Origin: a virus
Taxonomy: Duplodnaviria; Caudoviricetes
Direction: 5' to 3' (one strand)
Length of the DNA: 54,638 nt
IMG/VR virus record: IMGVR_UViG_3300029817_000033
Span: 1-54,638 of that record
This document shows positions 5,121 through 46,635 of the stretch, piece after piece. Every line of letters starts with the position of its first letter. Positions within the stretch are counted from its first letter, which is position 1. The notes under the pieces are model-generated. The model was not told where the DNA came from and searched no databases. It worked only from the letters and a program-made list of their open reading frames with translations. A program made the position numbers and the translations under genes.

Positions 5121-7288
5121 GACGCGATCCCCAGGGCCTTGTCGACAGCCTTCACCACGGCAGCCGAGTTCGGCCCGCTCACGATGACCGTCGGCGCCTT
5201 ACCCAGGGCGCCGGCGCTCCGCTGCGGGTTCAAGAGGGTCCGCAGATGCTCGTTGAACTGCTGCTGGATCGTCGTCTGCTTCTCGATCGCCGTCACGATG
5301 CTGCCCTCCCGGCTCGCCTGCCCGGCCCAGACCGGGCTCGTCACGCCGAGATCCTTCCCGATCTGCTTGAGCTGCGTGAGGCTCAGCCTCGACAACCCGA
5401 GCTGCTGAGCCACCGACAGGCGCTTGTCGTCGGCTTGGATCGCAGCGATGAGCTTCTGGTTCGCCGAGACCTGTTGGGAACTGAGGTTCGGCCCCTCCAG
5501 CACCATCCCTCGGCCTCCCCGAACCCAGTGGCTCGCGTCGGCAGCCTTGAGGAGGGCGATCGCCCTCTCGTTCGACTTGATCGCCTGGAGCGCCGACTCG
5601 TCGTGGACGTTGAGGCCCTTGCCGACGGCGGCGTTGAGCTTGACCTCTCCGGCGATCTTGACGAGCGAGCCGTGCATGATCCAGTTCCCCAGGTCCGTCG
5701 AGATGGACTTCCCTCCCCAGAGCTTCGGGAGCTGGTTGATGAGCGTGCCAACGACGCCTCCGAGAGCCAGCGCCATCGCCCCCGCAGCGACCGCGCTCAT
5801 CGCCCCCACGCCGACCGGCAGGAACCCGCCCTCCAGAGCCGGGAGCCCCGTCTCGGCAGCGGGGAGGGCAGCAGGGGCAGCCTCCTCGACTGCCTTGCCC
5901 GTGAAGGGGTTCACCGGCCCCTCGGCGGCGCTCCGGCCGAAGCCGCCAGCCATCGAGAGCTTCTCGGCAGCGGCCATGAGGGCTTCGGCTGCCTCGTTGA
6001 GCGTCACGCCCGCCGTCTGGAGCTGCACCCCGGCCGTCGTCTGCGTGGTCGTCGTCGTCATCCCAAGGATCGACTTCGCCCAGCCGCCCATCTTGCCGAG
6101 CACAGGGAGCGCCTTCGAGAAGAGGTAGAGCGCGCCGCCCGTCGCCATGAGCGGGAGCGCCCACTGCTGGCCGAACTCAGCCGCCCAGTCCTCGAACTTG
6201 GCTCGCACTCGGTTCAGGATGCCTTGCCAGGTGTTCGCGATCGCGTCGGCGGCGCCCTTCGTCTTCCAGTCGATCATCTGCTGGACGGTGCGGCCCCCGG
6301 TCGTCTTCATCAGGAGGGCGTTCGCGTTCGCCTCGGCCTTGATCGAGTCGGTGTGCTTCTGCGTGGCGAGGATGAGGGCGTTCTTGGCGTTGGCAAGCTG
6401 CTGGTTCTGGGCGATCGTCAGCCCGTTGCTCCCGACGTACTTGGCGTTCGCTGCCGTCGCTCGCTCGGTCGCCTCGGTCTGGACCTCCGTCATATGGAGC
6501 TGAGCGAGCGCGTACTCGTTCTGCGCTGTCTGCTGCTCCTTCGGAGTCACCGCCTCGTTGAGCTTCTGCTGAGCCGCAGCGAGCCGGAGCTGGGCCGCCT
6601 GGAGGTCTTCGGCGTTCTTGGCCGCGATGGCATCGGGAGTGCTCGTCGCTCCGGCCACGGCGGTCTTGAGCCTCACTTCGAGCTGCTCCAGCTTCGTGTG
6701 GGCCTTGATGACCTCGGCTGCCGACTTCGTGACTTCCTTCTGCGCGGACGCCTGGGCGCTCTGGGCCTTGGTCATCTCCTTCGTGTCGATGCCGAGAGCT
6801 GCCAGCGCTCGGAACTGCCCGGCTGCCACGGTGCGGACATACATCGTCGCGGCCGAGTTGAGGTCCATCTGTCGAGCAGCCGCGAGGTCTGCCACGTGCC
6901 CGATGTCGGCCAGCCCCTCCTTCGTCGAGCCGAAGCCACGGACCAGGATCGCGAGGGCGTTGTTGATCTTCGCATTCGAGTAGCCGAAGTGCGCTCCGGC
7001 CCTGTCGGCCGCTCCGATCTGCCCCGCGTAGGTGTCGTACTTCGCCCCCGTCGTCGTGATCGCGTTCTTGAGGAGGGCGAGCGCCGACTGGCTCTGCTCC
7101 GAGAAGTGGAACATGGCGACGCCAGCGGCCAGCAGCCCGAGCCCGAGGTCGCCGACTCCCTTGGCGAAGGACTTCTTGAACGAGCCTCCAGCGATGCCTC
7201 CGACGGTCCCCATCTCGGTCGCTGCGACCCCCGAGAAGTCCCCGAGGAAGGGCTGGAGCTGGACGAACGCCTGGCCGATGATCGTCAT
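5117..7288 (-). CDS. Tape measure protein
   Basis: 723 aa, A/G/Q/K-rich helical; IIGQAFVQLQP N-terminus; follows the chaperone pair. Confidence 0.85.
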   Translation of the reverse strand: MTIIGQAFVQLQPFLGDFSGVAATEMGTVGGIAGGSFKKSFAKGVGDLGLGLLAAGVAMFHFSEQSQSALALLKNAITTTGAKYDTYAGQIGAADRAGAHFGYSNAKINNALAILVRGFGSTKEGLADIGHVADLAAARQMDLNSAATMYVRTVAAGQFRALAALGIDTKEMTKAQSAQASAQKEVTKSAAEVIKAHTKLEQLEVRLKTAVAGATSTPDAIAAKNAEDLQAAQLRLAAAQQKLNEAVTPKEQQTAQNEYALAQLHMTEVQTEATERATAANAKYVGSNGLTIAQNQQLANAKNALILATQKHTDSIKAEANANALLMKTTGGRTVQQMIDWKTKGAADAIANTWQGILNRVRAKFEDWAAEFGQQWALPLMATGGALYLFSKALPVLGKMGGWAKSILGMTTTTTQTTAGVQLQTAGVTLNEAAEALMAAAEKLSMAGGFGRSAAEGPVNPFTGKAVEEAAPAALPAAETGLPALEGGFLPVGVGAMSAVAAGAMALALGGVVGTLINQLPKLWGGKSISTDLGNWIMHGSLVKIAGEVKLNAAVGKGLNVHDESALQAIKSNERAIALLKAADASHWVRGGRGMVLEGPNLSSQQVSANQKLIAAIQADDKRLSVAQQLGLSRLSLTQLKQIGKDLGVTSPVWAGQASREGSIVTAIEKQTTIQQQFNEHLRTLLNPQRSAGALGKAPTVIVSGPNSAAVVKAVDKALGIAS

Positions 7289-7289
7289 G

Positions 7290-7600
7290 TCAAGTCACCG
7301 GAGCAGCCGAGGGAACGAGGGCCATGATCTCTTGCAGGTCGCGCAGCGCCGACGCGCTCGTGCCCCAGTCGGAGTCGAGCGGGTCCACGTCCGGCCCTGG
7401 GATCGTCGCCCGGTCCATCAGCTTCTCTGCCTCCTCCATCCCGATCGCATCGACCATCGCTGCCCAGGCCGCGTTCAGATAGTGCCAGCCAGCGAGGGCT
7501 CCCGGCTCGGCGTGCCCGGCAAGGACAAGTCGCCCGTCGAAGTAACCCTCACCGGAGAGGGCCCACTCCCAGAGGGCGCGGGCCCGTCGGTAGGGCGTTC
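7290..7600 (-). CDS. Tail assembly chaperone, frameshifted (T-like) segment
   Basis: Open -1 frame overlapping the chaperone 3' end and ending just before tape measure; 5' boundary approximate. Confidence 0.55.
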
Positions 7601-7993
7601 CGTGTACGCCGGACCCCAGAGCCACATGAAGATGTCGCCGAGCACCTCGCTCTCGATCTCGACATCGCTGTCGATGAGGTTCACGAAGCGCTGGTAGTCG
7701 TCGGGCACCATCTCGACCTTGACCTCGTCGTCCTCGATCCGCTGGACGGGCACGAGGATGCCGAGCTCCCGGCACTTCGAGCAGTCGCGCAGAACCGTCT
7801 TGCGGATGAGCCGAGCGATCGCCGTCGCCTGCATCACCCCCGTCGAGTCGGCCGTCGCCAGGAAGCCCTCGTTGAGCGCCGAGGCCGACATCACCGGGGC
7901 ACAGTGGAACTCCTGCTCGGCCAGCTTGAAGGAGACCTCTCGGGGCTCGGCCTTGCCCTTCCCGCTCCCGAAGTCCTTGAACATCTTGCTCAT
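7475..7993 (-). CDS. Tail assembly chaperone (G-like)
   Basis: Start MSKMFKDFG overlaps upstream stop; ...YTERPT followed by S/P/G-rich tail; position before tape measure. Confidence 0.7.
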   Translation of the reverse strand: MSKMFKDFGSGKGKAEPREVSFKLAEQEFHCAPVMSASALNEGFLATADSTGVMQATAIARLIRKTVLRDCSKCRELGILVPVQRIEDDEVKVEMVPDDYQRFVNLIDSDVEIESEVLGDIFMWLWGPAYTERPTDGPAPSGSGPSPVRVTSTGDLSLPGTPSREPSLAGTI

Positions 7994-35935: not shown

Positions 35936-38413
35936 CTACGATGCGCGGGCGCCGCAGATCGGGCACTCCTCGCCGGGCTGGCTCTCGCGAGCCAGCGGGG
36001 CCTTGCAGGTCTGGCAGATCGGGTCGGAGTCGGTGACTCGCTCAGGGGCCAGCGTCTCGAACTCGGCTTCGATCTCGACGTCGTCCTCCGGCGCCGGAGC
36101 TGCGTCGCCGAGCACGAAGGCCAGAGCGCCGCAGATCGAGTCGTCCAGGTGGCGGCGCGCTCTCGTGGCCGCGACGTAGAGGAGCCGAAGCTCGCTCGGC
36201 GAGGGCTCCCCGCCATCCTTCGGCGTCGAGAAGTCGCTGCCGAGCCGAACGACGTCCCACTCCCGGCCCTTGGCCTTGTGGGCGGTCGATACAACGATGT
36301 CGGCGTCCTCCTCCTTGGCGGTGGAGTTGACCAGGTCGATGATCGTCTGCGCCCCGTACTCGTCGATGATCTTGACCATCAGCCGCAGCTCGTCGCCGTT
36401 CGGATCGAGGTCGGCGTAGTCGCGAACCTCGGTCCAGGTGGCGAAGCACGCCAGCTCCGGGTGCTCCGTGCGCCTCGGTGGCGTCGCCTGGAGATCGAGA
36501 GCAGCTCGGCAGAAGGAGGCGATGTCGCTCCCGCCGCCCATCAGGTGCACTCGGCGGCCTCGGCCGACCTCTCGGAGAGCGAAGTCGATGGCTCCGGCGT
36601 TCGTGCGGCTGAGGTACGCCTTCGGGTCGTCGTGCGGTCCGACGGCGCTCTCGTAGGGGGCTCTGCCGGTGAGCCGAAGCTCAGCTCCGGGGATGCGGGC
36701 CAGGATGACGTTCGCCACGTCGGCGATCGGCTGGCCGAAGCGGAAGCTGTTGGTCAGGAAGGTGCGGTTCCCGTCGACGCTGGCGAGGGCGTTGACTGCG
36801 CCGCGCCAGTCGTAGATCTGCTGGCAGTTGTGCGTCACGATCCCGTCGGCGACATAGGTGTGGTCATCCTCAACCCTCATGGAGTAGACGGTGCCAGCAA
36901 AGAACGGGGAACGGTAGCTCCCGGCGTTCTCGATACGGCTCCAATGGCGCTCGCCTTCGCCGCCCCTCTTCGCTGCTTCATCCGGAGTTAGAACGCTCAT
37001 GCCGTCCATGATGTTGCAGGCTCGGGTCACGAGCGCGCGCCGCAACATCAGGTTCCCGTTCGAAGGGTCCCACAGTGGGAACCTGATGTCCCTGCCATCC
37101 TCCGCCAGCGCCTTAGCGGCCCGGTTGCTGTTGTCGCCTACCATCTCCCAGAACGTCCGCACGTCCACGAGATGCGTGAGCGTCGGCTCGAATGTCCAGG
37201 TCGGGATCCCGAACTCGTGTGCTGTAAAGGCTTCCGCGAGTGCAGCCCCATCAGCTGAACTCCACATCGACAGAATCCACAGGGCGTCCGCCCCTTCTGC
37301 CTGCGCTCGAAGGACAGGACCGAATCCTCGGCCGTAGTGCGCCTGGCAGCGTCCGATGCGGTACTGACTGCCACGGCGCATCATGTAGACAAGGTGTTGA
37401 TTATCGAATGCGCCACGCAGGCGCACGATGACTCGATGATCGGGCGTATACCGAGTCACGCGACCAGCCGCCTTCACGACAACCAGGTCACCCCTGTACG
37501 GACGCTCGGAGACGCCTAGAACCTTCTTGCCTCGCAGATGCAGGTAAGAACGGGCTACGTCATATGCGACCACTACGTCACCAGCCTGAATCTGTTCGAT
37601 GGGTCGCTCCTCAATCACCGTGGCCTGTTGGCCCGATCCGGCGGTAATCACTACCTGTACCATCGTCCCGGCAGGTTGGCAGCTGTCGCCGACGAAGACG
37701 ACTTGGCACTGCTGCTGGGAGACGATCGAGAGCATCACCGGGTCGGCGTCCTGGGCCTCGTCGAAGAGGATGAAGTCGACCGGGATGACCGGGTGGTTCA
37801 GCTCCCAGAGCTTGAGGTAGCAGTCGTGCGTGAACGGCAGCGAGCCGTGAGGGTTCGCGAGGTCGTCCCATGCTGCGACCAGAGCTGGAGCGAGCGCTCG
37901 ACGAACCTCTCGGTTGTTCGACCAGCCCCGGCGACCTTCGAGCGGGGCGTCGATGCCGTCGATGTAGGGCACGTGGTCGATCGAGATGACCCGGTCGGCC
38001 GAGTGCGAGAAGTTGCGGGTCGCCTTGATGACGAGCCCGGCGAGGTAGCCCGGCGAGAGCCGCCGAGCCGCCCCGTCGACCTGGATCGTGAGCGGGTCGA
38101 TGCGGAGGCGCCGAGCGATCTCGTCGCCCCGCATGCGGACGGTCGGGAGGCGGTGCTTGTAGCGCACGCCGGTCGACCGGAAGGCCAGCGAGTGAGCCGT
38201 CGAGGCGTTCACGTTCGCTGGCATCTTGGCTTTGGCGTCCTCGACGATCGACTTGTTGAAAGCGACGTACTGGCCGCGCTTCGAGGTCGACTCGGCGATG
38301 GCGATGAGCGTCGAGGTCTTGCCGGTCCCGGCTCCGGCCTCGATCGCGAGAGAGGCGCCGGTCGCGAACAGGCGAACGGCGTCCCTCTGCTCTGCGGTGA
38401 GTTCGTGGCTCAC
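35936..38413 (-). CDS. UvrD/Rep-like SF1 helicase containing an intein
   Basis: AGAGTGKT, DEAQD, GDS|QQIY, SFRFG, STAHKAKGREW and LYVAATRAR motifs. Confidence 0.95.
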   Translation of the reverse strand: MSHELTAEQRDAVRLFATGASLAIEAGAGTGKTSTLIAIAESTSKRGQYVAFNKSIVEDAKAKMPANVNASTAHSLAFRSTGVRYKHRLPTVRMRGDEIARRLRIDPLTIQVDGAARRLSPGYLAGLVIKATRNFSHSADRVISIDHVPYIDGIDAPLEGRRGWSNNREVRRALAPALVAAWDDLANPHGSLPFTHDCYLKLWELNHPVIPVDFILFDEAQDADPVMLSIVSQQQCQVVFVGDSCQPAGTMVQVVITAGSGQQATVIEERPIEQIQAGDVVVAYDVARSYLHLRGKKVLGVSERPYRGDLVVVKAAGRVTRYTPDHRVIVRLRGAFDNQHLVYMMRRGSQYRIGRCQAHYGRGFGPVLRAQAEGADALWILSMWSSADGAALAEAFTAHEFGIPTWTFEPTLTHLVDVRTFWEMVGDNSNRAAKALAEDGRDIRFPLWDPSNGNLMLRRALVTRACNIMDGMSVLTPDEAAKRGGEGERHWSRIENAGSYRSPFFAGTVYSMRVEDDHTYVADGIVTHNCQQIYDWRGAVNALASVDGNRTFLTNSFRFGQPIADVANVILARIPGAELRLTGRAPYESAVGPHDDPKAYLSRTNAGAIDFALREVGRGRRVHLMGGGSDIASFCRAALDLQATPPRRTEHPELACFATWTEVRDYADLDPNGDELRLMVKIIDEYGAQTIIDLVNSTAKEEDADIVVSTAHKAKGREWDVVRLGSDFSTPKDGGEPSPSELRLLYVAATRARRHLDDSICGALAFVLGDAAPAPEDDVEIEAEFETLAPERVTDSDPICQTCKAPLARESQPGEECPICGARAS
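36827..37681 (-). mobile_element. Intein (285 aa) in helicase motif III
   Basis: Starts CQPAGT, block B TPDH, ends YVADGIVTHN followed by Cys; visibly lower GC than flanks. Confidence 0.93.
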
Positions 38414-38553
38414 GAGTGGGCCTCGATCTCGTCGTACTCAGCGTCGGCCTCAGCGACCTGGAGCGCCAGCTCGTACTCGCCACGGAGGACGAGGAGCTGG
38501 ACGGCGTTCGGTCGCCGGAGGATCGAGCTGAGTTCCTTCGCTGCGATGGCCAT
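38410..38553 (-). CDS. 47-aa hypothetical protein
   Basis: Extended RBS; GTGA overlap with the helicase start. Confidence 0.6.
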   Translation of the reverse strand: MAIAAKELSSILRRPNAVQLLVLRGEYELALQVAEADAEYDEIEAHS

Positions 38554-38579
38554 GTGGCTTCTCCTTCCAAGAGTTGATG

Positions 38580-38622
38580 CGCCAAGGTTAGCAGATGCCG
38601 TCGAGAAAGTCTAGACGGCGGG
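38580..38622 (-). promoter_or_regulatory. 43-bp repeat copy A: TAGACT-17bp-TAACCT promoter with overlapping palindrome
   Basis: Identical to 40917-40959. Confidence 0.8.
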
Positions 38623-38859
38623 GTCCTCCGAGCTGGCCGGAGCTGGCAGCCGCCCCGTCTCTCGCGCCCAGGTCTCGATGTCGCTCCAGTCCCACGCCGG
38701 GCGACCTCCAACGGTCCAGCGCTGCTTCGGGAACGTCGTCCCGATGTAGCGCCACTGGTCGGCGGTCTGACGCTTGACGCCCAGGCGCTCGGCGATCTCG
38801 ACGAGACCGACCGGCTCGGCGTGGTTGAGGCAGCAGCGGCCTTCGAAGCAGCGGGTCAT
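38611..38859 (-). CDS. AlpA/excisionase-like HTH protein
   Basis: VGLVEIAERLGVKRQTADQW...FP...W..SDIETW. Confidence 0.8.
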   Translation of the reverse strand: MTRCFEGRCCLNHAEPVGLVEIAERLGVKRQTADQWRYIGTTFPKQRWTVGGRPAWDWSDIETWARETGRLPAPASSEDPAV

Positions 38860-39914
38860 GACTGGTCCTCCTCAGGGTCGTCCAGGTGCATCAGGAACGA
38901 GGCGACGTCGTCCCAGCGGCGGGAAGCCTCGACGAGAACCTCTCGGTCGGACGCCTCGATGCTCACGGCCTCCTCCCAGAGGTCGGCGTCCCGGCACTCC
39001 TCGATCTCGTCGCGGATGAGGTCGACCATCGTCGCCGGTTCGAGGGCGTCCAGCTCCCAGCACTCCTCGCCGTACTCGGCGAGGTAGCCAGCGGAGCGGC
39101 TGTCGGTGAGCTTCGTCGGGTTGGGCGGCGGGTTGTACTCGTCGACCTGGTCCATGTTGAGGGCGATCCGCTTGATCTGGAGCGCCGGTCGGCCGTCGCA
39201 GTCGGCGTCCATCGACTCCCACAGCTCGCGGCGAGAGACCACGAACTCGCCCTCGTCGTTCTCGTGGCCGAGCCCTCTCGCCTCCATGTTCTCGCTGCGG
39301 GCGTTGAAGTAGTCCCGCTCGATGAACAGCTCCAGGCGGTCCCGGATGTCGCGAGTCATGTCGATGCCGCTCGGATCGTGGTCGCCCAGGTGGAGGATCA
39401 CGACAGACTGCCCTCCGGCGATGTAGCTGCCGAGCCGCTGAGCAGCTCCCCAGACCTCCGACTGGCTCGTGTAGCCACGGCAGGAGAAGTAGGGGACGTC
39501 CTCAGCGGGGCAGATGGCTTCGAGGACGCCGATCAGGGCGTCCTTCTCGATCCAGACTTCGACTCGGTTGGGTTGGCTGGCCCACTTGTCGGTACGGAAC
39601 GAGCGCGCGGCCGAGGCCACCCGAGCACTCAGGTCGTCCCAGTGCTGGAGGTCTCGCAGCTCGCGAGTGCGGTCGACGATGAAGTCCCAGTCGAGAGCCC
39701 CGGCCAGCCGAGCATCGTTGATGATCGAGCCGAGCCGGGAGTACTCGCTTTGGCGGTTCGGGATGAACCCCCGCGAGACGAACTGGTAGTAGAGCTGGCG
39801 AAGCGTCAGATCGAGCCCTTGCGCCTGGTAGGCGCGGCAGATCCGGTTCGCCTGCGTGATGACGTCGAGGGTCGCTGGAGAGAACTTCTTGGGGGTGTAG
39901 CAGATGCGCGTCAC
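38856..39914 (-). CDS. Toprim protein (Topo VI-A/Spo11/DUF2399-like)
   Basis: TLRQLYYQ, EVWIEKDAL, RGY.S, GDHDPSG and ELDAL motifs. Confidence 0.85.
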   Translation of the reverse strand: MTRICYTPKKFSPATLDVITQANRICRAYQAQGLDLTLRQLYYQFVSRGFIPNRQSEYSRLGSIINDARLAGALDWDFIVDRTRELRDLQHWDDLSARVASAARSFRTDKWASQPNRVEVWIEKDALIGVLEAICPAEDVPYFSCRGYTSQSEVWGAAQRLGSYIAGGQSVVILHLGDHDPSGIDMTRDIRDRLELFIERDYFNARSENMEARGLGHENDEGEFVVSRRELWESMDADCDGRPALQIKRIALNMDQVDEYNPPPNPTKLTDSRSAGYLAEYGEECWELDALEPATMVDLIRDEIEECRDADLWEEAVSIEASDREVLVEASRRWDDVASFLMHLDDPEEDQS

Positions 39915-40168
39915 CGGCCTCCCTCCTTGATCCAGGTGTCAACGACGAAGCCGCCGCACTTCCGCGCTGCGGCCTCGGCGCTGGCGAGGTTGTCGCTCCG
40001 GCGCTCGACCCAGCCGCCCGAGCGGCTCACCGCGAGGTAGCGGCGCATGGAGGTCGTCCGGAGGATGCGGGCCGGGTCAAGCAGCCCGCCCGGGTAGTTG
40101 GGCAGCCGGAAGGTCACGACTCGCGTCGTCACCGTCCGGCGCACTTCGAGGGCTTGGATCGTGGTCAC
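39911..40168 (-). CDS. Hypothetical protein
   Basis: GTGA coupling. Confidence 0.55.
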   Translation of the reverse strand: MTTIQALEVRRTVTTRVVTFRLPNYPGGLLDPARILRTTSMRRYLAVSRSGGWVERRSDNLASAEAAARKCGGFVVDTWIKEGGR

Positions 40169-40392
40169 TGGACGGCCCTCGCTCCCTCAGCCGTGAGGCG
40201 GTAGTAGACGCCCTGGCCGGTGCTGTAGCCGTTGCCGTAGACCCGTCGGACCAGGCCGAGCCGGACGAGCGCCCCCGCCGTCCGGGTGACTCCGTTGACC
40301 GGAGCGCCCAGCTCCCGAGCCAGGTGCTTCGGAGAGACCAGCCCTTTCGCCTCAGCGATGACGGCGAGGGCCCTCTTCATCTGGGCGGTCAT
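40165..40392 (-). CDS. Winged-helix (MarR-like) small protein
   Basis: SPKHLARELG....V......LVRLGLV.R...YRLTAEG. Confidence 0.7.
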   Translation of the reverse strand: MTAQMKRALAVIAEAKGLVSPKHLARELGAPVNGVTRTAGALVRLGLVRRVYGNGYSTGQGVYYRLTAEGARAVQ

Positions 40393-40694
40393 CACTTCCA
40401 CCCGAGAGCGCGAGCGGCGGCGCCGGGCAGGTAGCCGATCTGCTCGCCCTCGGCGATGTAGACGACAGGAGGCTCGTCGATGAGATCGGGCAGCTCGGGG
40501 CGCTTCTCATCGCAGCCCTCCTCGTCGTGCTCGTCCCAGTCGATCCCGCATTCCGAGCAAGAGGTCTGCTCGCCAGCGGAGTCGGCGACGGTCTCGATCG
40601 AGTACTCGAAGGGCCACGAGGGCTGGTGCGCGAGGCGAACCTCGGCGTCCTCGGGGAAGTCTTCGAGCAGTTCCAGAAGCTCGCCGACGGTCAT
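40392..40694 (-). CDS. Hypothetical protein with Cys-containing insert
   Basis: MTVGELLELLED...VRLAHQPSWPFEY; CSEC..H..C. Confidence 0.7.
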   Translation of the reverse strand: MTVGELLELLEDFPEDAEVRLAHQPSWPFEYSIETVADSAGEQTSCSECGIDWDEHDEEGCDEKRPELPDLIDEPPVVYIAEGEQIGYLPGAAARALGWK

Positions 40695-40758
40695 CGGAGG
40701 GCTCCCCAGTGGGGCCAGTTAACAGCGGACATTGTCGCTCTCCTTCCAAGAGTCAGAG

Positions 40759-40914
40759 TCACTGGGCGTCCTTCGCTGCCCAGTAGGCATCCCAGGTAGC
40801 TTGCCAGCTCTCGCCGATGGCATCGGCGACGTTCTCGACAGCGTCGTTCGTGCTCAGCCCGTACTCGACGGTCTGACGCTCGACTTCCTCGATGAGGCTC
40901 CTGCTGTCGATCAC
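40759..40914 (-). CDS. 51-aa probable leaderless protein
   Basis: GTG 7 nt after TAACCT; MIDSRSLIEEVERQ...WDAYWAAKDAQ (manual translation). Confidence 0.55.
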   Translation of the reverse strand: MIDSRSLIEEVERQTVEYGLSTNDAVENVADAIGESWQATWDAYWAAKDAQ

Positions 40915-40916
40915 GC

Positions 40917-40959
40917 CGCCAAGGTTAGCAGATGCCGTCGAGAAAGTCTAGACGGCGGG
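40917..40959 (-). promoter_or_regulatory. 43-bp repeat copy B (promoter/operator)
   Basis: Identical to 38580-38622. Confidence 0.8.
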
Positions 40960-41295
40960 AGCGGCGTCCTCCCTGGTCACGACCCTGGGCGTGCCTCTGC
41001 CGTCGACGACGGCGATGAGGTCGGTGGCGATCGCCAGAGCGTCGACGTCGCCACAGGTGAAGACGTCGATGTAGGCACGAGCGAACTCCGGCCAGGTGTG
41101 GATCGAGGCGTGCGACTCGGCGAGGATGGCGAGCACCGTCACGCCCTGGGGCTTGAACTGGTGCGAGAGCGCCCGGATGACGTGAGCGCCGTGCTCCTCG
41201 CAGACCTCCGGCAGCTGAGCCAGCAGCCAGCACTCGTCGTCGAGCAGTTCGACATCGGCCTCGGTGACGTCGACGACAACGTGGCGAAGGGTCAC
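40948..41295 (-). CDS. speD: S-adenosylmethionine decarboxylase proenzyme
   Basis: HQFKPQGVT...LAESHASIHTWPE...IDVFTCG; E-S autocleavage site of pyruvoyl enzymes. Confidence 0.92.
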   Translation of the reverse strand: MTLRHVVVDVTEADVELLDDECWLLAQLPEVCEEHGAHVIRALSHQFKPQGVTVLAILAESHASIHTWPEFARAYIDVFTCGDVDALAIATDLIAVVDGRGTPRVVTREDAAPAV

Positions 41296-42260
41296 GGCCG
41301 GAAGACGAGTAGGTACTCGTGGATGCGAGGGGCGACCCGCGAGCGGTTCTTCTGGACGGCGAAGAGGCGGTTGATCCCGGTGAGGATGCCGTCGGTGACC
41401 CAGATGTCGTGCAGCGAGTAGCCAGCCTCCCGCATCAGGTCGATCGTATCCGCGTGGTAGGGGACGAGCTTGCCGTCCCGGTGCCAGTCGCCGACGTTGA
41501 TGACGAGGAAGGCGCCGTCCTTGAACTTCGGGTGCCAGGCTCGGGCGACCTCGGTCATGCCCTCGATGAACTCCTCGTAGGTCTTGCCGGTGCCGAGCTG
41601 CTCCGGCTCCGGCCCGTAGAACTCGATGTCCCAGTAGGGGGGCGAGTAGAAGGAGAAGTCGCCGATCCCGTCGGGCACCCAGTCGGCATTGCGCGAGTCC
41701 TGGCAGCGGACCTCGACGTGCAGCTCGGACGGGACCGCCAGCTTCTCCAGCACGTTGTTCGTGTAGGCGACGTACTCTTCGCAGCAGTCAGAGCCCCAGT
41801 AGTGGAGCCCCCGCACGACGGCGACCTGCATCTGGATGCCCTGGGCCGAGAAGGGATCGAGGTAGACCTGGCCGGGCTCGGCGTAGTACTTGATGGCGAA
41901 GTCCACCAGCTCGGCGGGCATGAAGCTCACCGAGCGCCGGTCCTTCTGCGACATCAGACCGCCGAGTATCCCCGTGAGCCCGCGCTCGCGGCGCCGCTTG
42001 GCCTTGGCTGCGGCCTCGGGAGACTTGGCCGACTCCTCCCAGAGCCGACTCGCCTTGTTGGGCATCGATCCACCCGGCCGCTCGGCGAGCAGGTTGTACA
42101 TCGAGCGCGAGAGCTGGCCGCGCGAGAGCCGGAGGATCGAGACCGGGATGAAGCCGAAGCGCTGGAGCATCTCGCGACGCTCGATCTGGCCCTTGGCGAC
42201 CGCCTCGGTGAGCTCCTCGTCGGCCTTGGCCGACAGGTCTGGCTTCTCGGCGCCGGTCAT
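41292..42260 (-). CDS. Amino-methyltransferase-like protein with atypical motif I
   Basis: YLDPFSAQG (motif I) precedes FYSPPY (motif IV); C-terminal HEYLLVF. Confidence 0.85.
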   Translation of the reverse strand: MTGAEKPDLSAKADEELTEAVAKGQIERREMLQRFGFIPVSILRLSRGQLSRSMYNLLAERPGGSMPNKASRLWEESAKSPEAAAKAKRRRERGLTGILGGLMSQKDRRSVSFMPAELVDFAIKYYAEPGQVYLDPFSAQGIQMQVAVVRGLHYWGSDCCEEYVAYTNNVLEKLAVPSELHVEVRCQDSRNADWVPDGIGDFSFYSPPYWDIEFYGPEPEQLGTGKTYEEFIEGMTEVARAWHPKFKDGAFLVINVGDWHRDGKLVPYHADTIDLMREAGYSLHDIWVTDGILTGINRLFAVQKNRSRVAPRIHEYLLVFRP

Positions 42261-42892
42261 AGCCCAAGCCACTTTCTCAGCACGGAGTCCAGCATCTCGC
42301 CCTTCTCTCTCTTGCCCTCGTAGACGGCCTTGAAGCTCTCGAAGACGGCCACCGAGACCCGGCCCTGGTACTCGCCGAAGGTGAACGGCAGATCCTCGCT
42401 CGGCACCGGCTGGCTGCCGGGCAGCGGCGGCTCGTTCTCTCGCATCGCTAGTTCGTTGAGCAGGCGCTCCAGGTCGCCGGAGTCGAAGCCGGTGCCCTCC
42501 AACCCGCGCGTCTCCTCCAGATCGAGCAGCACCCGAGCCAGCGTGTCGTCCTTCCAGAGCCCCTCCCCGACACGGTTGAGCGCCAGCGCCATCGCGTCGG
42601 CGTGAGCGTCGTCCCTCGACTCGACGCCCACCTGGACGGGCACGAGCCAACGGCCATCGTCGTCCAGCTCGACGTTCTCGGGTGGGGCGGCTCCGCTGTC
42701 TCGGAGCGCCAGCAGCGTCTCGATCCGGCCATGTCCGGCCAGCAGGCGCCCCGTCCGGTCGTCTCGCACGATCGCCTGGACGTAGCCGAACTGCTCGAAG
42801 CTCACGGCCGTCAGCTCGTTGTCGTGGTCCTTGGCGTTCACGAGCGCCAGCTCGACGTCCTCTAGAGGCAGGTACTCGATCGCGAGCGCCAT
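42257..42892 (-). CDS. ParB/Srx-like domain protein
   Basis: NAKDH..S..FG...LLAGHGR...LALNR...W...TGF. Confidence 0.85.
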   Translation of the reverse strand: MALAIEYLPLEDVELALVNAKDHDNELTAVSFEQFGYVQAIVRDDRTGRLLAGHGRIETLLALRDSGAAPPENVELDDDGRWLVPVQVGVESRDDAHADAMALALNRVGEGLWKDDTLARVLLDLEETRGLEGTGFDSGDLERLLNELAMRENEPPLPGSQPVPSEDLPFTFGEYQGRVSVAVFESFKAVYEGKREKGEMLDSVLRKWLGL

Positions 42893-43104
42893 CAGCCCAC
42901 CCTCTCCTTCTTGAGGTCGAAGAAGACCGTCATCCCATCGACTCGCGAGGCTCGGCCCAGCTCGGCCTTCGATGAGTCTCCGGCAGCGATCCGCTCCCGC
43001 CAGAGCGAGCGCCGGAGGGCGAGGATGTCGCGCTCGATCGCTCTCGTCTCGTCGAGGGTGTCGGCCAGCCGAGCGAGCTTGGCGAGCGCCTCGGCCTTCT
43101 CCAT
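42892..43104 (-). CDS. Small HTH-like protein
   Basis: SKAELGRASRV; TGATG coupling. Confidence 0.55.
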   Translation of the reverse strand: MEKAEALAKLARLADTLDETRAIERDILALRRSLWRERIAAGDSSKAELGRASRVDGMTVFFDLKKERVG

Positions 43105-43581
43105 CTACTTCTCGCCTGCTCCTTCGTCATCGCGCACGCCCGGCCGGATCTCCCGGACCTTGTTCTTGGCGTCGTCGACGCGCTGGTCAAGCACGCCCTC
43201 CGGGTCGGGGAGCGTGAGCTGCCCTGTCTTCTTGAACTCGCGCTGATGGGCGACGCGCTCGGCCATCGCGTGCACGACCGGGCCGACGAGGTCCTCGTCG
43301 ATGAACGTCCCGGCGACCGCCTCGAAGTTCTGGACGAACTCGTAGCCGATGGCCTTGCCGTCGCCGTCCCGGACGATGACGTAGTTCTCGCCCTTCTTGA
43401 CCAGCTTGCCGACGACGAAGACCGCCTTGTCGGCAGGGACGTCTCGGGGCTCGATCTCGGCGACCTCGGTGAGCCGGTCGCTCAGCTTCGCCTCGACGAT
43501 CTTCCGGCCCATGATCGGCTTCCGCTTGTAGGTCTCGACGGGCGGGGCGGCCTCCGTCTCGTCGGGCTGGCTCCGTGCCAT
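43105..43581 (-). CDS. Hypothetical protein
   Basis: GAAGGGAG RBS; upstream conserved motif. Confidence 0.65.
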   Translation of the reverse strand: MARSQPDETEAAPPVETYKRKPIMGRKIVEAKLSDRLTEVAEIEPRDVPADKAVFVVGKLVKKGENYVIVRDGDGKAIGYEFVQNFEAVAGTFIDEDLVGPVVHAMAERVAHQREFKKTGQLTLPDPEGVLDQRVDDAKNKVREIRPGVRDDEGAGEK

Positions 43582-43612
43582 GTGGTGCTCCCTTCGCTAG
43601 TGGACTTTGACT

Positions 43613-44044
43613 CTATCGCTTCGTGGTCTTGCCTGTCGGGTTCTTCTGCGCCCAGTCGAGTAGCGCTGCGCTCCAGCCGTAGCGCTGGGGGGCGTCGAGC
43701 GGCCGGGCGATCCAGTTGGCGATCATCTGCCAGTCGTCCGTCGGCTGCAAGAGCCAGCAGCGGTTCGTGGGGCACGCTCCGGCGAAGAAGTCGAGCACGA
43801 TCACCTGAGCGGCTGAGATGGCGGTGTGGGGGCCTTTGACCTCGATCCAGAGCGTGCAGCCGTGCCCGACGGCCATGATGTCCGGCAGCCCCTTGAGCGT
43901 CGTCGACGTGAGCCAGCGGCCGTCGCTGGTCTTCATGCGGAAGACGTAGTTCACGAGGTAGCCGAACTTCTTGAGGCCGGGGATCAGCACCTCCTTCTGG
44001 AAGGTGGACTCCCCGACCTGCGAGCGCAGCTCGAACAGACTCAT
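43613..44044 (-). CDS. VRR-NUC-like PD-(D/E)xK nuclease
   Basis: E..FQ, GLPDI, WIEVK and S..Q motifs. Confidence 0.85.
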   Translation of the reverse strand: MSLFELRSQVGESTFQKEVLIPGLKKFGYLVNYVFRMKTSDGRWLTSTTLKGLPDIMAVGHGCTLWIEVKGPHTAISAAQVIVLDFFAGACPTNRCWLLQPTDDWQMIANWIARPLDAPQRYGWSAALLDWAQKNPTGKTTKR

Positions 44045-44280
44045 GGCGTCGGCTTCACCCCTCTCGTGTCGAAGCCCTCGCCGAGCACGAAGTGCTGGCA
44101 GGGGCAGAGGTCGCAACGTGCGAAGCATGAGTAGTGGCGCCACCGGGCGTGCGTACAGGTGCACCGAGGGCTCGGCCACGGCGGCGCCGTCATCTTGTGG
44201 GGGACGGGTGGCTGCCGAGCTGGCCGGTCCCGCCAGGGACTCCCGACGGGAGGGGCCGAGCTGCGGCCCGGCTTCGTCAT
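44041..44280 (-). CDS. Small Cys/His zinc-binding protein
   Basis: CTCTH....H...CDLCPCQHF; ATGA coupling. Confidence 0.55.
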   Translation of the reverse strand: MTKPGRSSAPPVGSPWRDRPARQPPVPHKMTAPPWPSPRCTCTHARWRHYSCFARCDLCPCQHFVLGEGFDTRGVKPTP

Positions 44281-45296
44281 GCCGGGTACTCGTCCCAGAG
44301 CTTGCCGTCGAGATGGCGCCCCGCCGCTCTCTTGCCACAGCGATGGAGCCGGACGAGGGACCTCCACTCTCCGGTCTCCAGTAGCCGGGCTCGCTGCTCG
44401 TCCTCGGCCCAGGGGTCGGCGGTCGTCGTACCGTCGTGAGCGAGGTAAGTCGCTCGGCCGTCGTTGACGATCGAGCCCCATTCGCCCCATTGCTTGAACA
44501 GGAACGGCACGGAGCGGCCGTCGCAGTCGCACTCGGGAGGCTCCCAGGGCCCGGCCCAGTCGTCCCGGCCGTCGAGCCAGAGCGAGAGCGAGCACCAGTC
44601 GGCGTGGGTGCCCTTCGCACAGAGCCAGCGCATCTCGCGAGCCCAGTCGGGGTGCATCGGCCGGGCCTTCGGTCCCGACTCGCCACCGACGATCACCCAG
44701 TCGATCCCTCGGAGATCGAGCGCCTGGTAGACCGAACCGAGCAGCGGCTCGATCGAGAGGAACCGCACGGCGGCCGGGGTCTCCAGCAGATGCCCGGCCC
44801 GGAACTGGTACGGCTTGCTCTCGATCGAGACGCCCAGCCAGACGTTCGCGAGCGGCCAGTCAAAGTCTCCGGCAGCAGCGCCCCGGACGTCGTCGACGAG
44901 TCGGATGAACTCCCGATCGTGCAGTAGCCGGGCCATCCGTTGCGGACGCTTCGTGAGCACCTGGAAGGTGTGTTGCCTGGCTCGCTCCATCGTGGCGAAG
45001 ACGGCCGCGATGAACTCGGCGGGGACGTCGGGGTGGAACAGGTCGCTCATCGAGTCGACGAAGATGCGCCGGGGCTTCGCCCAGTGAAGCGGGTCTTCGA
45101 GGCGCTCGCGCAACAGCCGGACCTCCCCGGTGAAGACCCCGTCGACGGCGAGCCCGGCGTAGGTCGGGAACTGCCGGAGCCGCCCCGACGCCTCTCGTGC
45201 CGCGTAGCAGTGCTCGCAGCCCGGCGAGACCTCTTCGCACCCGACGGTCGGGTTCCAGGTGGCGTCAGTCCACTCGATCTTGCTTTCGCTGCTCAC
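44277..45296 (-). CDS. DUF5131 / phage Gp37-Gp68 family protein (radical-SAM-like)
   Basis: IEWTDATWNP..GC..VSPGC.HCYA, SMSDLFH, LTKRP, WVIVGGESG and FKQWG motifs. Confidence 0.92.
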   Translation of the reverse strand: MSSESKIEWTDATWNPTVGCEEVSPGCEHCYAAREASGRLRQFPTYAGLAVDGVFTGEVRLLRERLEDPLHWAKPRRIFVDSMSDLFHPDVPAEFIAAVFATMERARQHTFQVLTKRPQRMARLLHDREFIRLVDDVRGAAAGDFDWPLANVWLGVSIESKPYQFRAGHLLETPAAVRFLSIEPLLGSVYQALDLRGIDWVIVGGESGPKARPMHPDWAREMRWLCAKGTHADWCSLSLWLDGRDDWAGPWEPPECDCDGRSVPFLFKQWGEWGSIVNDGRATYLAHDGTTTADPWAEDEQRARLLETGEWRSLVRLHRCGKRAAGRHLDGKLWDEYPA

Positions 45297-46635
45297 GTTG
45301 CGCCTCCCTTCGGCGACGGTGCTCCAGCGCTCGGGTCTCCACGAAGGCGAACGTCGTCGGCGTGTGCTTCGTGAAGTGCTGGATGGCATAGAGAGCGGTC
45401 AGCCCGACATCGGCCAACTCGGTCAGCAGGTCGTCCATGTCGCCGTACTCGCCCTTACGGGGGTTCTGCCCGGTGATGCCGATGAGGGCGTCGATCGCCT
45501 CGCCCGCCTCCTCGACGACCTTGGAGACTCGTGCCCAGTCCTGGGCGAGCGGCTGCTCCTTGTACCGCTCGGAGACGAAGCCGTCGAGGTCGGCGTCCAT
45601 CCACTCGACGCAAGCGACGAGGTTCTCGTAGAAGTTCCCCATCAGTCGGGGAGCTTCATGGTGGATCGCCGTGACGTGCTCCTCGGAGCACCCGGCGTCG
45701 CGGCAGAGCGCCGCGTAGTTGAGGATGGCGTCGGCTGCGAGCTTGTCTTGCGCTCGGAGCACGAAGCAGGGCTCGTCCTCCTCTAGAGGCTTGTGGCCCT
45801 CGCGAACCTCGACGGTGAACTTGGCGTCGTGCATGGCTCCTCCTTGTTGGGTTGGTTGGTCGGTCGGTTGATCGTGGTTCGTCGTCGGGGCGAACAGTTG
45901 CAGCTCCTCGCCCCGGTGAGCGATCTCCCGGCAGTAGCCAGCCGAGAGTTCGAGCCCGACGACGCCGCGACCGAGACGCCGGGCTTCATAGATCGTCGTG
46001 CCGGAGCCGACGAAGGGATCGAGGACAACGTCACCGGGCCAGGTCGCGAGCCAGAGGCAGCGCCGGACTAGCTCGGCGGGGAAGGGAGCCGGGTGGTTGG
46101 CGAGCCTCTTCGCCGTGGCGAAGCTCCAGATGGACTTGGTGATCTCCAGGAAGGCATCGGTTGGGCAGTCGTTCGGTCCCGTCCGGCCCCGAGCGAACGG
46201 CGGCCGGAAGAACCAGAGCACCACCTCGTGACGGCCTCGGACGTTCGGTGCGTTCGGTGAGAGCCAGCTCCCCCACGAGCACGGGGCGTCCTTGCCGAAC
46301 TGCTCCCAGACGATGAGCATGCGGTAGTCGAGCCCCGCCGCAGCGAGCGCCTCGCGCCAGACGAGGTCGGGCGCCCAGCGGGACGAGCCTCGTCCTCCGG
46401 GGTCGCTCTGGGCATCGGTAGGCACGTTGACGAAGCAGCGGCCACCAGGCACGAGCACGCGCTCGAACTCGATCGCCCAGTCCTCGACTCGGGCCTGGTA
46501 GACGTCGGGTGGGCAGTAGTCGTCCACGCCGTCGTAGTCCATCCCCAGGTTGTAGGGCGGGGATGTCACAATGCAGTCGACCGACTCCGATCGGATCGGG
46601 AGCCGAGCTGCGTCGGCCTGGACGACGTCGCTCAA
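45265..46635 (-). CDS. N4C/N6A DNA methyltransferase fused in frame to a small domain and a MazG-like pyrophosphatase
   Basis: TSPPYN, HPAPFP, LDPFVGSGTT; then DEPCFVLRAQD; then EEAGE...ELADV; no intervening stop. Confidence 0.85.
   Translation of the reverse strand: MSDVVQADAARLPIRSESVDCIVTSPPYNLGMDYDGVDDYCPPDVYQARVEDWAIEFERVLVPGGRCFVNVPTDAQSDPGGRGSSRWAPDLVWREALAAAGLDYRMLIVWEQFGKDAPCSWGSWLSPNAPNVRGRHEVVLWFFRPPFARGRTGPNDCPTDAFLEITKSIWSFATAKRLANHPAPFPAELVRRCLWLATWPGDVVLDPFVGSGTTIYEARRLGRGVVGLELSAGYCREIAHRGEELQLFAPTTNHDQPTDQPTQQGGAMHDAKFTVEVREGHKPLEEDEPCFVLRAQDKLAADAILNYAALCRDAGCSEEHVTAIHHEAPRLMGNFYENLVACVEWMDADLDGFVSERYKEQPLAQDWARVSKVVEEAGEAIDALIGITGQNPRKGEYGDMDDLLTELADVGLTALYAIQHFTKHTPTTFAFVETRALEHRRRREAQREQRKQDRVD

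Follow-up and report, generated by a model that had tools for sequence, protein, structure and literature searches.

A phage S-adenosylmethionine decarboxylase gene covaries with the cofactor motif of an adjacent methyltransferase-like gene: a candidate DNA modification module fed by decarboxylated S-adenosylmethionine

The window analyzed here is the whole 54,638-bp stretch of the IMG/VR virus record IMGVR_UViG_3300029817_000033, a linear sequence of ca. 68% G+C without terminal repeats. On its minus strand, three open reading frames (ORFs) follow one another head to tail, with overlaps that predict translational coupling, and code for a ParB-like protein, a DNA methyltransferase (MTase)-like protein, and SpeD, a predicted pyruvoyl S-adenosylmethionine (SAM) decarboxylase. 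Among relatives of the MTase-like protein, one residue of the cofactor-binding motif I changes with the presence of an adjacent speD gene, in two separate clades. The best explanation of these observations as a whole, which we put forward tentatively, is that the three genes form a single DNA-modification module, in which a DNA base transferase would depend on decarboxylated SAM (dcSAM) fed by its own SpeD.

Related loci were searched for by tblastn and by hidden Markov model (HMM) searches of six-frame ORFs. Homologues of the MTase-like protein numbered 162 at E ≤ 1e-3 among proteins clustered at 90%, and 181 clusters at E ≤ 1e-30 among proteins clustered at 50%. Of 18 viral contigs with a homologue, 12 also contain PF02675, the SAM decarboxylase family, which in 12 of 12 cases lies downstream of the MTase gene and on its strand, while a ParB-like gene was located directly upstream of the MTase gene in 16 of the 16 assessable close viral loci. 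In the clade of the window protein, the transferase has SpeD as its neighbor, nearly always immediately downstream, in 26 de-duplicated locus groups; in a second clade, where the ParB-like and MTase parts are fused, it adjoins the transferase in all 46 assessable loci. HMM matches to the MTase and to SpeD are separated by a median of 50 nt in the window's clade and of 65 nt among the fused enzymes, and the two genes abut or overlap in relatives as they do in the window (e.g., L008, L011, L015). Cultured phages carrying a fused ParB-MTase and SpeD are Croceibacter phage P2559S (gp66 followed by gp67) and Pseudomonas/Stutzerimonas phage ZRG1; fused relatives without SpeD are found in Listeria phage B054, Enterococcus phage phiFL3A, Mycobacterium prophage prophiGD43A-5, Clostridium phage phiCTP1, Microcystis phage Mae-JY30, and Bacillus phage G. 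Such an arrangement, recurring in dozens of diverged phage contigs, goes far beyond what chance would give. An earlier note on this DNA, made from the sequence alone, had proposed that the MTase-like gene and speD are functionally linked, as is borne out by two separate MTase clades in which adjacency is conserved and the genes are translationally coupled.

To score the cofactor motif in the window's clade, viral and metagenome loci were collected with scan patterns that allowed both Q and R, and were de-duplicated at 97% identity. A locus was considered assessable if SpeD was found or if at least 700 bp of downstream sequence was available, and the residue scored was the one aligned to Q143, position +6 of motif I counted from F137. 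Gln at +6 was observed in 27 sequences with SpeD and two without; Arg was observed in none with SpeD and 20 without, and Thr in none with SpeD and two without. Nine sequences were left out as not assessable. For the association between the residue and SpeD, the uncorrected Fisher p is 1.8e-12. In a column scan within the clade, Q143 was the sole conserved column that separated the two groups, with Gln in 29 of 29 SpeD-linked sequences and six Arg plus two Gln among the SpeD-less ones.

The fused clade, whose scan patterns did not include motif I, displayed a complete split (Fisher p = 4e-25). SpeD lies directly downstream of 46 out of 46 assessable genes with the motif AGD[ST]x[FL] (one locus, L165, ends 3 bp after the gene), and was found downstream of none of the genes with AGGSVR or SGGSVR (0/34), GGEQTK (0/3), SGRATR (0/1), or AGDFTT (0/1). 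FAGD, with Asp at +3, is present in all 47 loci of the SpeD-linked subclade and in L195. The latter enzyme (L195, 1123-2400) is nested among SpeD-linked fused enzymes and has lost SpeD; its motif, AGDFTT, retains Asp at +3, but Phe at +6 is replaced by Thr, with Thr-Thr at +5/+6. No case of Arg, Lys, or Thr at +6 combined with SpeD was encountered, and the two clades contain 61 assessable SpeD-less sequences.

As a negative control, 69 distant relatives from bacterial genomes were inspected. They have Thr, Ser, or Ala at +6 (Thr in 62 of the 68 readable motifs), and no SpeD was found within 3 kb of them. In the wider family, Arg occupies +6 in 101 and Gln in 13 of the best 150 representatives of clusters at 50% identity. 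The cofactor pocket thus covaries with SpeD in both clades, a relation that the earlier note had proposed to test for motif I, but the site involved is +6 (Q143) and not the residue that the note had flagged. The flagged feature was SAQG in place of xGxG. The first Gly of FxGxG is indeed Ala in the window enzyme (F-S-A-Q-G), but the family consensus, F-M-G-Q-G, is canonical (DPFMGQGVQMQ in the window's clade), and the GQG loop is common to the SpeD-linked enzymes and their close SpeD-less relatives. The Gly to Ala change as a signature of dcSAM use was ruled out by this canonical consensus.

The same data bear on a simpler scenario, where the transferase is an ordinary SAM-dependent enzyme producing N4-methylcytosine (m4C) or N6-methyladenine (m6A), SpeD acts independently of it, supplying polyamines through the host SpeE or depleting SAM as an anti-defense measure, and adjacency reflects a shared expression module. 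It is in line with the fact that 133 of 143 phage SpeD records belong to cyanophages, the one inspected (S-PM2) having no MTase annotated among nine neighboring genes, and with G005, a complete 39-kb relative that has no SpeD. Phage SpeDs are also reported to feed spermidine synthesis when expressed with SpeE (PMC9992855). An independent SpeD, however, fails to explain both the carboxylate-side switch at +6 in two clades, with 0 discordant Arg/Lys/Thr cases among 61 assessable SpeD-less sequences, and the conserved start/stop coupling, and SAM depletion sits badly with the canonical second MTase of the window phage. The latter is a weak argument, for a second canonical MTase is present in only 2 of 25 SpeD-positive records (G009 and G031). 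We consider an independent SpeD improbable.

A quick IQ-TREE phylogeny of 60 sequences grouped the enzymes with the GQG loop into a clade of 41 rows (support 98), with members that have Gln and SpeD at its base. The Arg-type enzymes are scattered at ca. seven places within the clade, among many unsupported forks; on this tree, at least nine changes are needed for the residue and at least seven for SpeD. In the fused family, the Asp/Phe sequences with SpeD form a single clade (48 rows, support 96). A conservative count suggests about four co-transitions: one at the origin of each clade, one reversion or more, and L195.

What the switch may mean for cofactor binding can be judged from enzymes described in the literature. 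In the beta-class MTase M1.HpyAVI, S198 (+3) and T200 (+5) of FMGSGT contact the carboxyl of SAM (PMC5173035). Ser/Thr contacts of this kind (GSGTT type, at +3 and +5/+6) are absent from the window enzyme, which has Q140, I142, and Q143. In spermidine synthase, D103 (+3 of GGGDGG) forms a salt bridge with the amine of dcSAM and is believed to repel the carboxyl of SAM; the combined substitutions D103I, Q79T, and V106T abolished aminopropyl transfer and created a SAM-dependent putrescine N-methyltransferase, V106 being position +6, where Thr was modelled to hydrogen-bond with the SAM carboxyl (PMC3725402). Judging from the aligned motifs, the SpeD-linked phage enzymes match the dcSAM pattern, for the cationic or hydrogen-bonding +6 residue is lost, with Gln or Phe in place of Arg, and the fused clade gains Asp at +3, while the SpeD-less enzymes keep Arg, Lys, or Thr at +6. 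The window enzyme itself has Gln140 where aminopropyltransferases have the Asp of GGGDG in the Gly-rich loop. We infer that dcSAM is quite probably the cofactor of the SpeD-linked transferases.

The MTase-like protein matched PF01555 (N6_N4_Mtase) over profile positions 3-105 (5.3e-12, 46.6 bits versus a cutoff of 26.7), and its motif I part matched separately from the PF01555 motif IV part, in permuted order. An alignment with TTHA0409 (2zie) also fell into two pieces, with query residues 202-281 aligned to the N-terminal motif IV region and residues 104-163 to the C-terminal motif I region. By its motif order, the protein is a circular permutant of the beta-class arrangement, with motif I before motif IV. 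In an AlphaFold2 model (31 homologues; mean predicted local distance difference test score 84.5), motif I forms the loop between beta1 (132-135) and a helix (142-149). The top VIA-align matches were TrmN, Trm11, and Trm14, with Z of 18-19 (TrmN, Z 19.0, root-mean-square deviation 2.0 over 173 residues), and the top Foldseek match was aTrm11 (E 2.4e-10); these nearest solved structures are of class I methyltransferases and share the linear motif order of the window enzyme. As modelled, the protein has the class I Rossmann SAM-MTase fold. All fold matches listed by Foldseek and VIA-align were generic class I methyltransferases; that no aminopropyltransferase was among them does not count as exclusion. 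All 31 aligned homologues have S206, P207, P208, Y209, and W210, and the protein gave no match to PF01564 (spermidine synthase) at E ≤ 1. Profile, fold, and motif IV place the MTase-like protein in the PF01555 superfamily; it is not a PF01564 member. The SPPY and DPFSAQGIQM that the earlier note had read in it are present at residues 206-209 and 135-144, respectively. The form FTSPPY, common in the window's clade, is what we take to be the signature of N4-cytosine MTases, and cytosine N4 is tentatively suggested as the target because of this match.

SpeD of the window matched PF02675 (7.8e-27, 94.2 bits versus a cutoff of 25), the NCBIfam equivalog TIGR03330 for the Bacillus-type SAM decarboxylase (90.2 bits versus a cutoff of 75.65), and phrog_3125 (6e-26). 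Its E60-S61, H66, and C81 are spaced identically to S63, H68, and C83 of the Thermotoga maritima enzyme, described as the processing Ser and the catalytic His and Cys (PMC10407285). Across 74 distinct MTase-linked SpeD cores, E-S and His are kept in 74, Pro in 73, and Cys in 72. One Pro is reported as fully conserved in bona fide SAM decarboxylases and lost in their arginine-decarboxylase derivatives (PMC10407285), and the Pro of HTWPE (P69 in the window) seems to be that residue. The P2559S SpeD restored spermidine in an E. coli delta-speD strain (PMC9992855). SAM decarboxylase activity thus comes from experiment for P2559S gp67, a member of the MTase-linked set, while the window SpeD, judged by sequence, looks like a bona fide SAM decarboxylase. 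The earlier note had allowed for an arginine or ornithine decarboxylase instead, an option that loses ground with a score above the TIGR03330 cutoff, retention of E-S, His, Pro, and Cys, and the experimentally validated P2559S member. Upstream of the processing site, the MTase-linked SpeDs are of two sequence types, 'H(D/x)FPGGG' and 'HxFxPQG', as seen when L003, L008, L009, L011, L017, L054, L055, and L059 are compared with the window, L007, L013, L050, L060, L080, and L083; both types have the ESH...HTWPE...C core.

With both enzymes at hand, the two reactions could also be imagined in the reverse order: the MTase-fold enzyme would put the 3-amino-3-carboxypropyl group of SAM on DNA, and the SpeD homologue would then decarboxylate the DNA-bound group. 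Such a scheme resembles what MccD and MccE reportedly do in microcin C maturation. MccD (5fcd) is among the fold neighbors of the window enzyme (Z 16.3), but amid many generic methyltransferases, and changes of substrate are on record for SpeD homologues (PMC10407285). At the carboxylate side, the SpeD-linked enzymes have lost Arg and gained Asp, contrary to what binding of carboxylated SAM would require, the linked SpeDs keep the Pro of the SAM decarboxylase type, and the P2559S SpeD acts on free SAM (PMC9992855). We regard the reverse order as very improbable.

The ParB-like protein produced no Pfam match at E ≤ 1 and no NCBIfam match at E ≤ 0.1. It did match phrog_620 'ParB-like partition protein' (1.6e-21), phrog_723 (8.8e-14), and the N-terminal part (33-172 of 633) of phrog_498, a fused ParB-MTase family, so that the ParB-like and MTase-like proteins together represent the N- and C-terminal parts of phrog_498. 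The ParB-like protein is probably a DNA-targeting or activating partner of the transferase, given the analogy with the ParB-activated phage thymine dioxygenases and the fusion of ParB to the enzyme in the sister clade.

If the module operates as a dcSAM-fed DNA transferase, SpeD would process itself to the pyruvoyl enzyme and turn host SAM into dcSAM. The MTase-fold enzyme, without the positive residue that SpeD-less relatives keep next to the cofactor carboxylate, would bind dcSAM and not SAM, and, with its intact SPPY, would move a group from the dcSAM sulfonium to an exocyclic amino group of a DNA base. The group would most likely be 3-aminopropyl, with 5'-methylthioadenosine as the by-product, giving N4-(3-aminopropyl)cytosine or N6-(3-aminopropyl)adenine. 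Such a mark, bulky and cationic, should shield phage DNA from nucleases. The ParB-like protein, which the window encodes separately and the sister clade as part of a fusion, would load or activate the transferase on DNA. The parts of this scheme deserve different confidence. Given dcSAM as the cofactor, transfer of aminopropyl rather than methyl is only somewhat the likelier outcome, and the target base and the role of ParB are suggestions of a weaker kind. In full, the proposal of a new cationic hypermodification, N4-(3-aminopropyl)cytosine or N6-(3-aminopropyl)adenine, made post-replication by one MTase-fold enzyme with dcSAM from its own SpeD, would introduce the first nucleic-acid aminopropyltransferase, and we advance it with more reserve than the module as such. 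Going further, one could suppose that the Arg-type enzymes of the clade might move the entire 3-amino-3-carboxypropyl group of SAM.

The main competitor accepts dcSAM but retains methyl chemistry. SpeD would drain SAM into dcSAM, starving SAM-dependent defenses and methylases of the host, while the phage enzyme, re-tuned by replacement of Arg with Gln or Phe, would still make m4C or m6A. It accounts for the same covariation, and no reading is more parsimonious for a toggle of one residue in an active site that is otherwise unchanged. It also agrees with the Gln-to-Arg reversions that seem to have occurred repeatedly along with the loss of SpeD, and with the fact that the fold neighbors are all methyltransferases. 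All dcSAM users known to us are aminopropyltransferases, and we know of no natural dcSAM-dependent methyltransferase, though no search was aimed at this point. The second canonical DPFVGSGTT MTase of the window phage and of G009 would be starved of SAM, and the +3 Asp of the fused clade mirrors the Asp in the GGGDG of aminopropyltransferases. Dependence on dcSAM with methyl transfer is in our opinion unlikely, though it deserves more credit than an independent SpeD. Aminopropyl is favored by the dcSAM users known to us, by the +3 Asp of the fused clade, convergent with GGGDG, by the ready salvage of 5'-methylthioadenosine, and by the anti-restriction value of a cationic mark.

Several points weigh against a dcSAM-dependent aminopropyl transfer. 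In the window's clade the switch involves a single residue, with Gln at +3 in both states, and the simplest reading is that cofactor recognition changes while methyl chemistry stays. The SPPY motif and the whole fold are of the amino-methyltransferase type, the nearest solved folds being tRNA N2-methylguanosine methyltransferases, and the search for sequence similarity of the transferase to PF01564 found none. Equivalence of +3 and +6 across families relies on motif alignment and the secondary structure of the model. Two Gln-type loci, L014 and L079, have no SpeD in reach. The MTase ORF of L014 (764-1633) ends early, without the conserved C-terminal HEYxLVF strand, and is followed directly by terminase-like genes; either decay of the module or an error of assembly may explain this. 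L079 offers 1.47 kb downstream and no upstream sequence, and SpeD does occur upstream in another locus, L058. Independent pairs on well-supported branches of the tree number only two, or four with a 450-bp assessability threshold that was chosen after seeing the data; none is discordant, and sign tests on 2-4 pairs cannot reach 0.05. A single Arg-type group inside the clade was not rejected by the approximately unbiased test (delta lnL 52, p = 0.089), and therefore no count of independent reversions is claimed from it.

The coordinates of the features of the window are collected in Table 1. The three coupled genes with ATGA and GTGA overlaps were reported in the earlier note, and both coordinates and overlaps hold in the sequence; the second MTase with a canonical motif, also reported there, is present as well. 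The description of the genome as apparently complete has to be dropped, since the record is linear, has no terminal repeats, and is estimated by CheckV to be 49% complete. A spermidine synthase, PF01564, was not found anywhere in the record (E ≤ 0.1), as had been noted; the argument drawn from genome completeness is not established, and because of the estimated completeness this absence says little. The two small ORFs upstream of the ParB-like gene have no family match and no homologue in 18 related viral loci.

Table 1. Features of the module and neighboring genes in the window
Feature	Coordinates	Strand	Basis or remark
ParB-like (predicted ParB/Srx N-terminal domain) protein, 211 aa	42257..42892	-	ORF; PHROG matches; G53-H-G-R56 motif
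MTase-like DNA base transferase (predicted), 322 aa	41292..42260	-	Counted from the ATG overlapping the ParB stop
SpeD, class 1b pyruvoyl SAM decarboxylase proenzyme (predicted), 115 aa	40948..41295	-	GTG start overlapping the MTase stop
ATGA start/stop overlap of ParB-like and MTase-like genes	42257..42260	-	Predicted translational coupling
GTGA start/stop overlap of MTase-like and SpeD genes	41292..41295	-	Predicted translational coupling
Motif I, D135-P-F-S-A-Q-G-I-Q-M144	41829..41858	-	Q143 codon 41834-41832, +6 from F137
Motif IV, S206-P-P-Y209, catalytic amino-group-binding motif	41634..41645	-	Sequence
SpeD self-processing site, E60-S61 (predicted)	41113..41118	-	S61, pyruvoyl precursor; H66, P69, C81 downstream
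Second MTase, canonical beta-class N6/N4, 539 aa	45268-46884	-	DPFVGSGTT at 46020-45995; PF01555 full length, 4.9e-33
DUF5131 (phage Gp37/Gp68-type) protein, 370 aa	44280-45389	-	PF07505, 1.9e-90; between the module and the second MTase
ORF, 70 aa	42892-43104	-	Tightly packed; overlaps the ParB start by one base (TGATG)
ORF, 158 aa	43105-43581	-	Tightly packed upstream of the 70-aa ORF

Some loci depart from the arrangement of the window. Three viral contigs have two tandem MTase paralogues followed by SpeD. In L001, tandem Gln-type paralogues (5998-6918 and 6921-7814, 53% and 47% identical to the window protein) are followed by one SpeD, and similar tandems are seen in L002, L003, L042, and L043; they may represent two target specificities. 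P0121, a representative of 696 aa, is matched by the profile over two separate stretches and is possibly a double enzyme formed by fusion. In L058 (1300-3143) the order is different, with SpeD upstream of a ParB-sized gap and the MTase. The ParB-MTase module is often located immediately upstream of terminase genes, as in L033 (ZRG1), L038 (phiFL3A), L039 (prophiGD43A-5), and L014, a position that suggests late expression or coupling to packaging.

No close relative was detected in the genome_contigs collection, which holds one genome per bacterial and archaeal species (best match, 28% identity), and the clade therefore appears to be confined to free or unbinned phage genomes. Positions 38000-46000 of the window are near-identical (at least 0.88 of sampled words) in 16 DNA runs from peat, wetland, and soil metagenomes (one labelled 'metagenome'), dated 2014-2025. 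In total, 20 runs from 15 studies contain the stretch in whole or in part, and four of these 20 are possibly the source of this DNA. Four metatranscriptome runs yielded contigs of 150-430 nt, at least 99% alike, from ParB, the MTase 3' end, and SpeD; these were dismissed as evidence of transcription because DNA carry-over is possible and none of the contigs spans a gene junction by 31 nt.

If the proposal is true, dcSAM would be a third DNA-modification cofactor beside SAM and carboxy-SAM (Cx-SAM), and many environmental phages would carry a novel base modification or a methylation orthogonal in its cofactor; the realistic upside is a DNA modification that is categorically new. A subset of phage speD 'auxiliary metabolic genes' would be DNA-modification and not polyamine genes. 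Replacement of the +6 Arg with Gln or Phe, plus the +3 Asp in the fused clade, would constitute a compact signature of a SAM/dcSAM switch, a cofactor rule of one or two residues for a DNA MTase scaffold, of use in enzyme engineering and in labelling DNA. DNA of such phages would be predicted to resist restriction enzymes and some sequencing chemistries. The module is directly testable because P2559S and ZRG1 are cultured and carry it; the literature matches listed contained nothing on the DNA of these two phages.

No description of dcSAM-dependent or SpeD-linked DNA modification was found in full-text literature searches, which did not cover supplements, and the module can be compared with several known systems that share parts of it. 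The phrog_498 ParB-fused MTases (Listeria phage B054 gp77, Enterococcus phage phiFL3A gp36, Mycobacterium prophage GD43A-5 gp79) are homologous, have the same permuted order and a ParB partner, and often occupy the same position just upstream of terminase genes; they differ in the motif AGGSVR, with Arg at +6, and in having SpeD adjacent in 0 of 34 cases. The cyanophage S-PM2 SpeD is of the same class 1b SAM decarboxylase family as the window SpeD (PMC9992855), but that paper treats SpeD as a polyamine enzyme, and the words 'methyltransferase', 'methylase', and 'ParB' occur 0 times in its main text. In the ParB-dependent phage thymine dioxygenases, a ParB-superfamily protein encoded beside the DNA-modifying enzyme is its activator (PMC13229309). 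These enzymes are of the Fe/2-oxoglutarate dioxygenase class, unlike the window transferase, and ParB activation in the window is suggested only by analogy.

Spermidine synthase and putrescine N-methyltransferase share the Rossmann MTase fold with the phage enzymes, and the choice between dcSAM with aminopropyl and SAM with methyl is set at +3 (Asp versus Ile) and +6 (Val versus Thr) (PMC3725402), two Gly-rich-loop positions that also switch among the phage enzymes. The phage transferase differs from spermidine synthase in that no PF01564 membership is detected, in its acceptor, which would be DNA and not a small diamine, in SPPY in place of the catalytic Asp after beta4, and, in the window's clade, in Gln instead of Asp at +3. 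Phage CmoA and CmoX of Synechococcus phage S-B43, a Cx-SAM synthase and a DNA cytosine C5-carboxymethyltransferase, also combine a phage-encoded SAM-tailoring enzyme with an adjacent MTase-fold DNA transferase, the selectivity of which hinges on one Arg (PMC12783734). The cofactor of CmoX is Cx-SAM, whereas that of the window module would be dcSAM; CmoX is a relative of C5-cytosine MTases, whereas the window enzyme is of the (S/D/N)PPY amino-MTase type; CmoX gains an Arg that binds the extra carboxyl, whereas the SpeD-linked enzymes lose one; and CmoA/CmoX is proven by experiment (PMC12783734), whereas the SpeD module is proposed from genomes. By analogy, phage CmoA/CmoX appears to be the closest functional counterpart of the module, and the spermidine synthase/putrescine N-methyltransferase pair the closest mechanistic counterpart of its cofactor switch.

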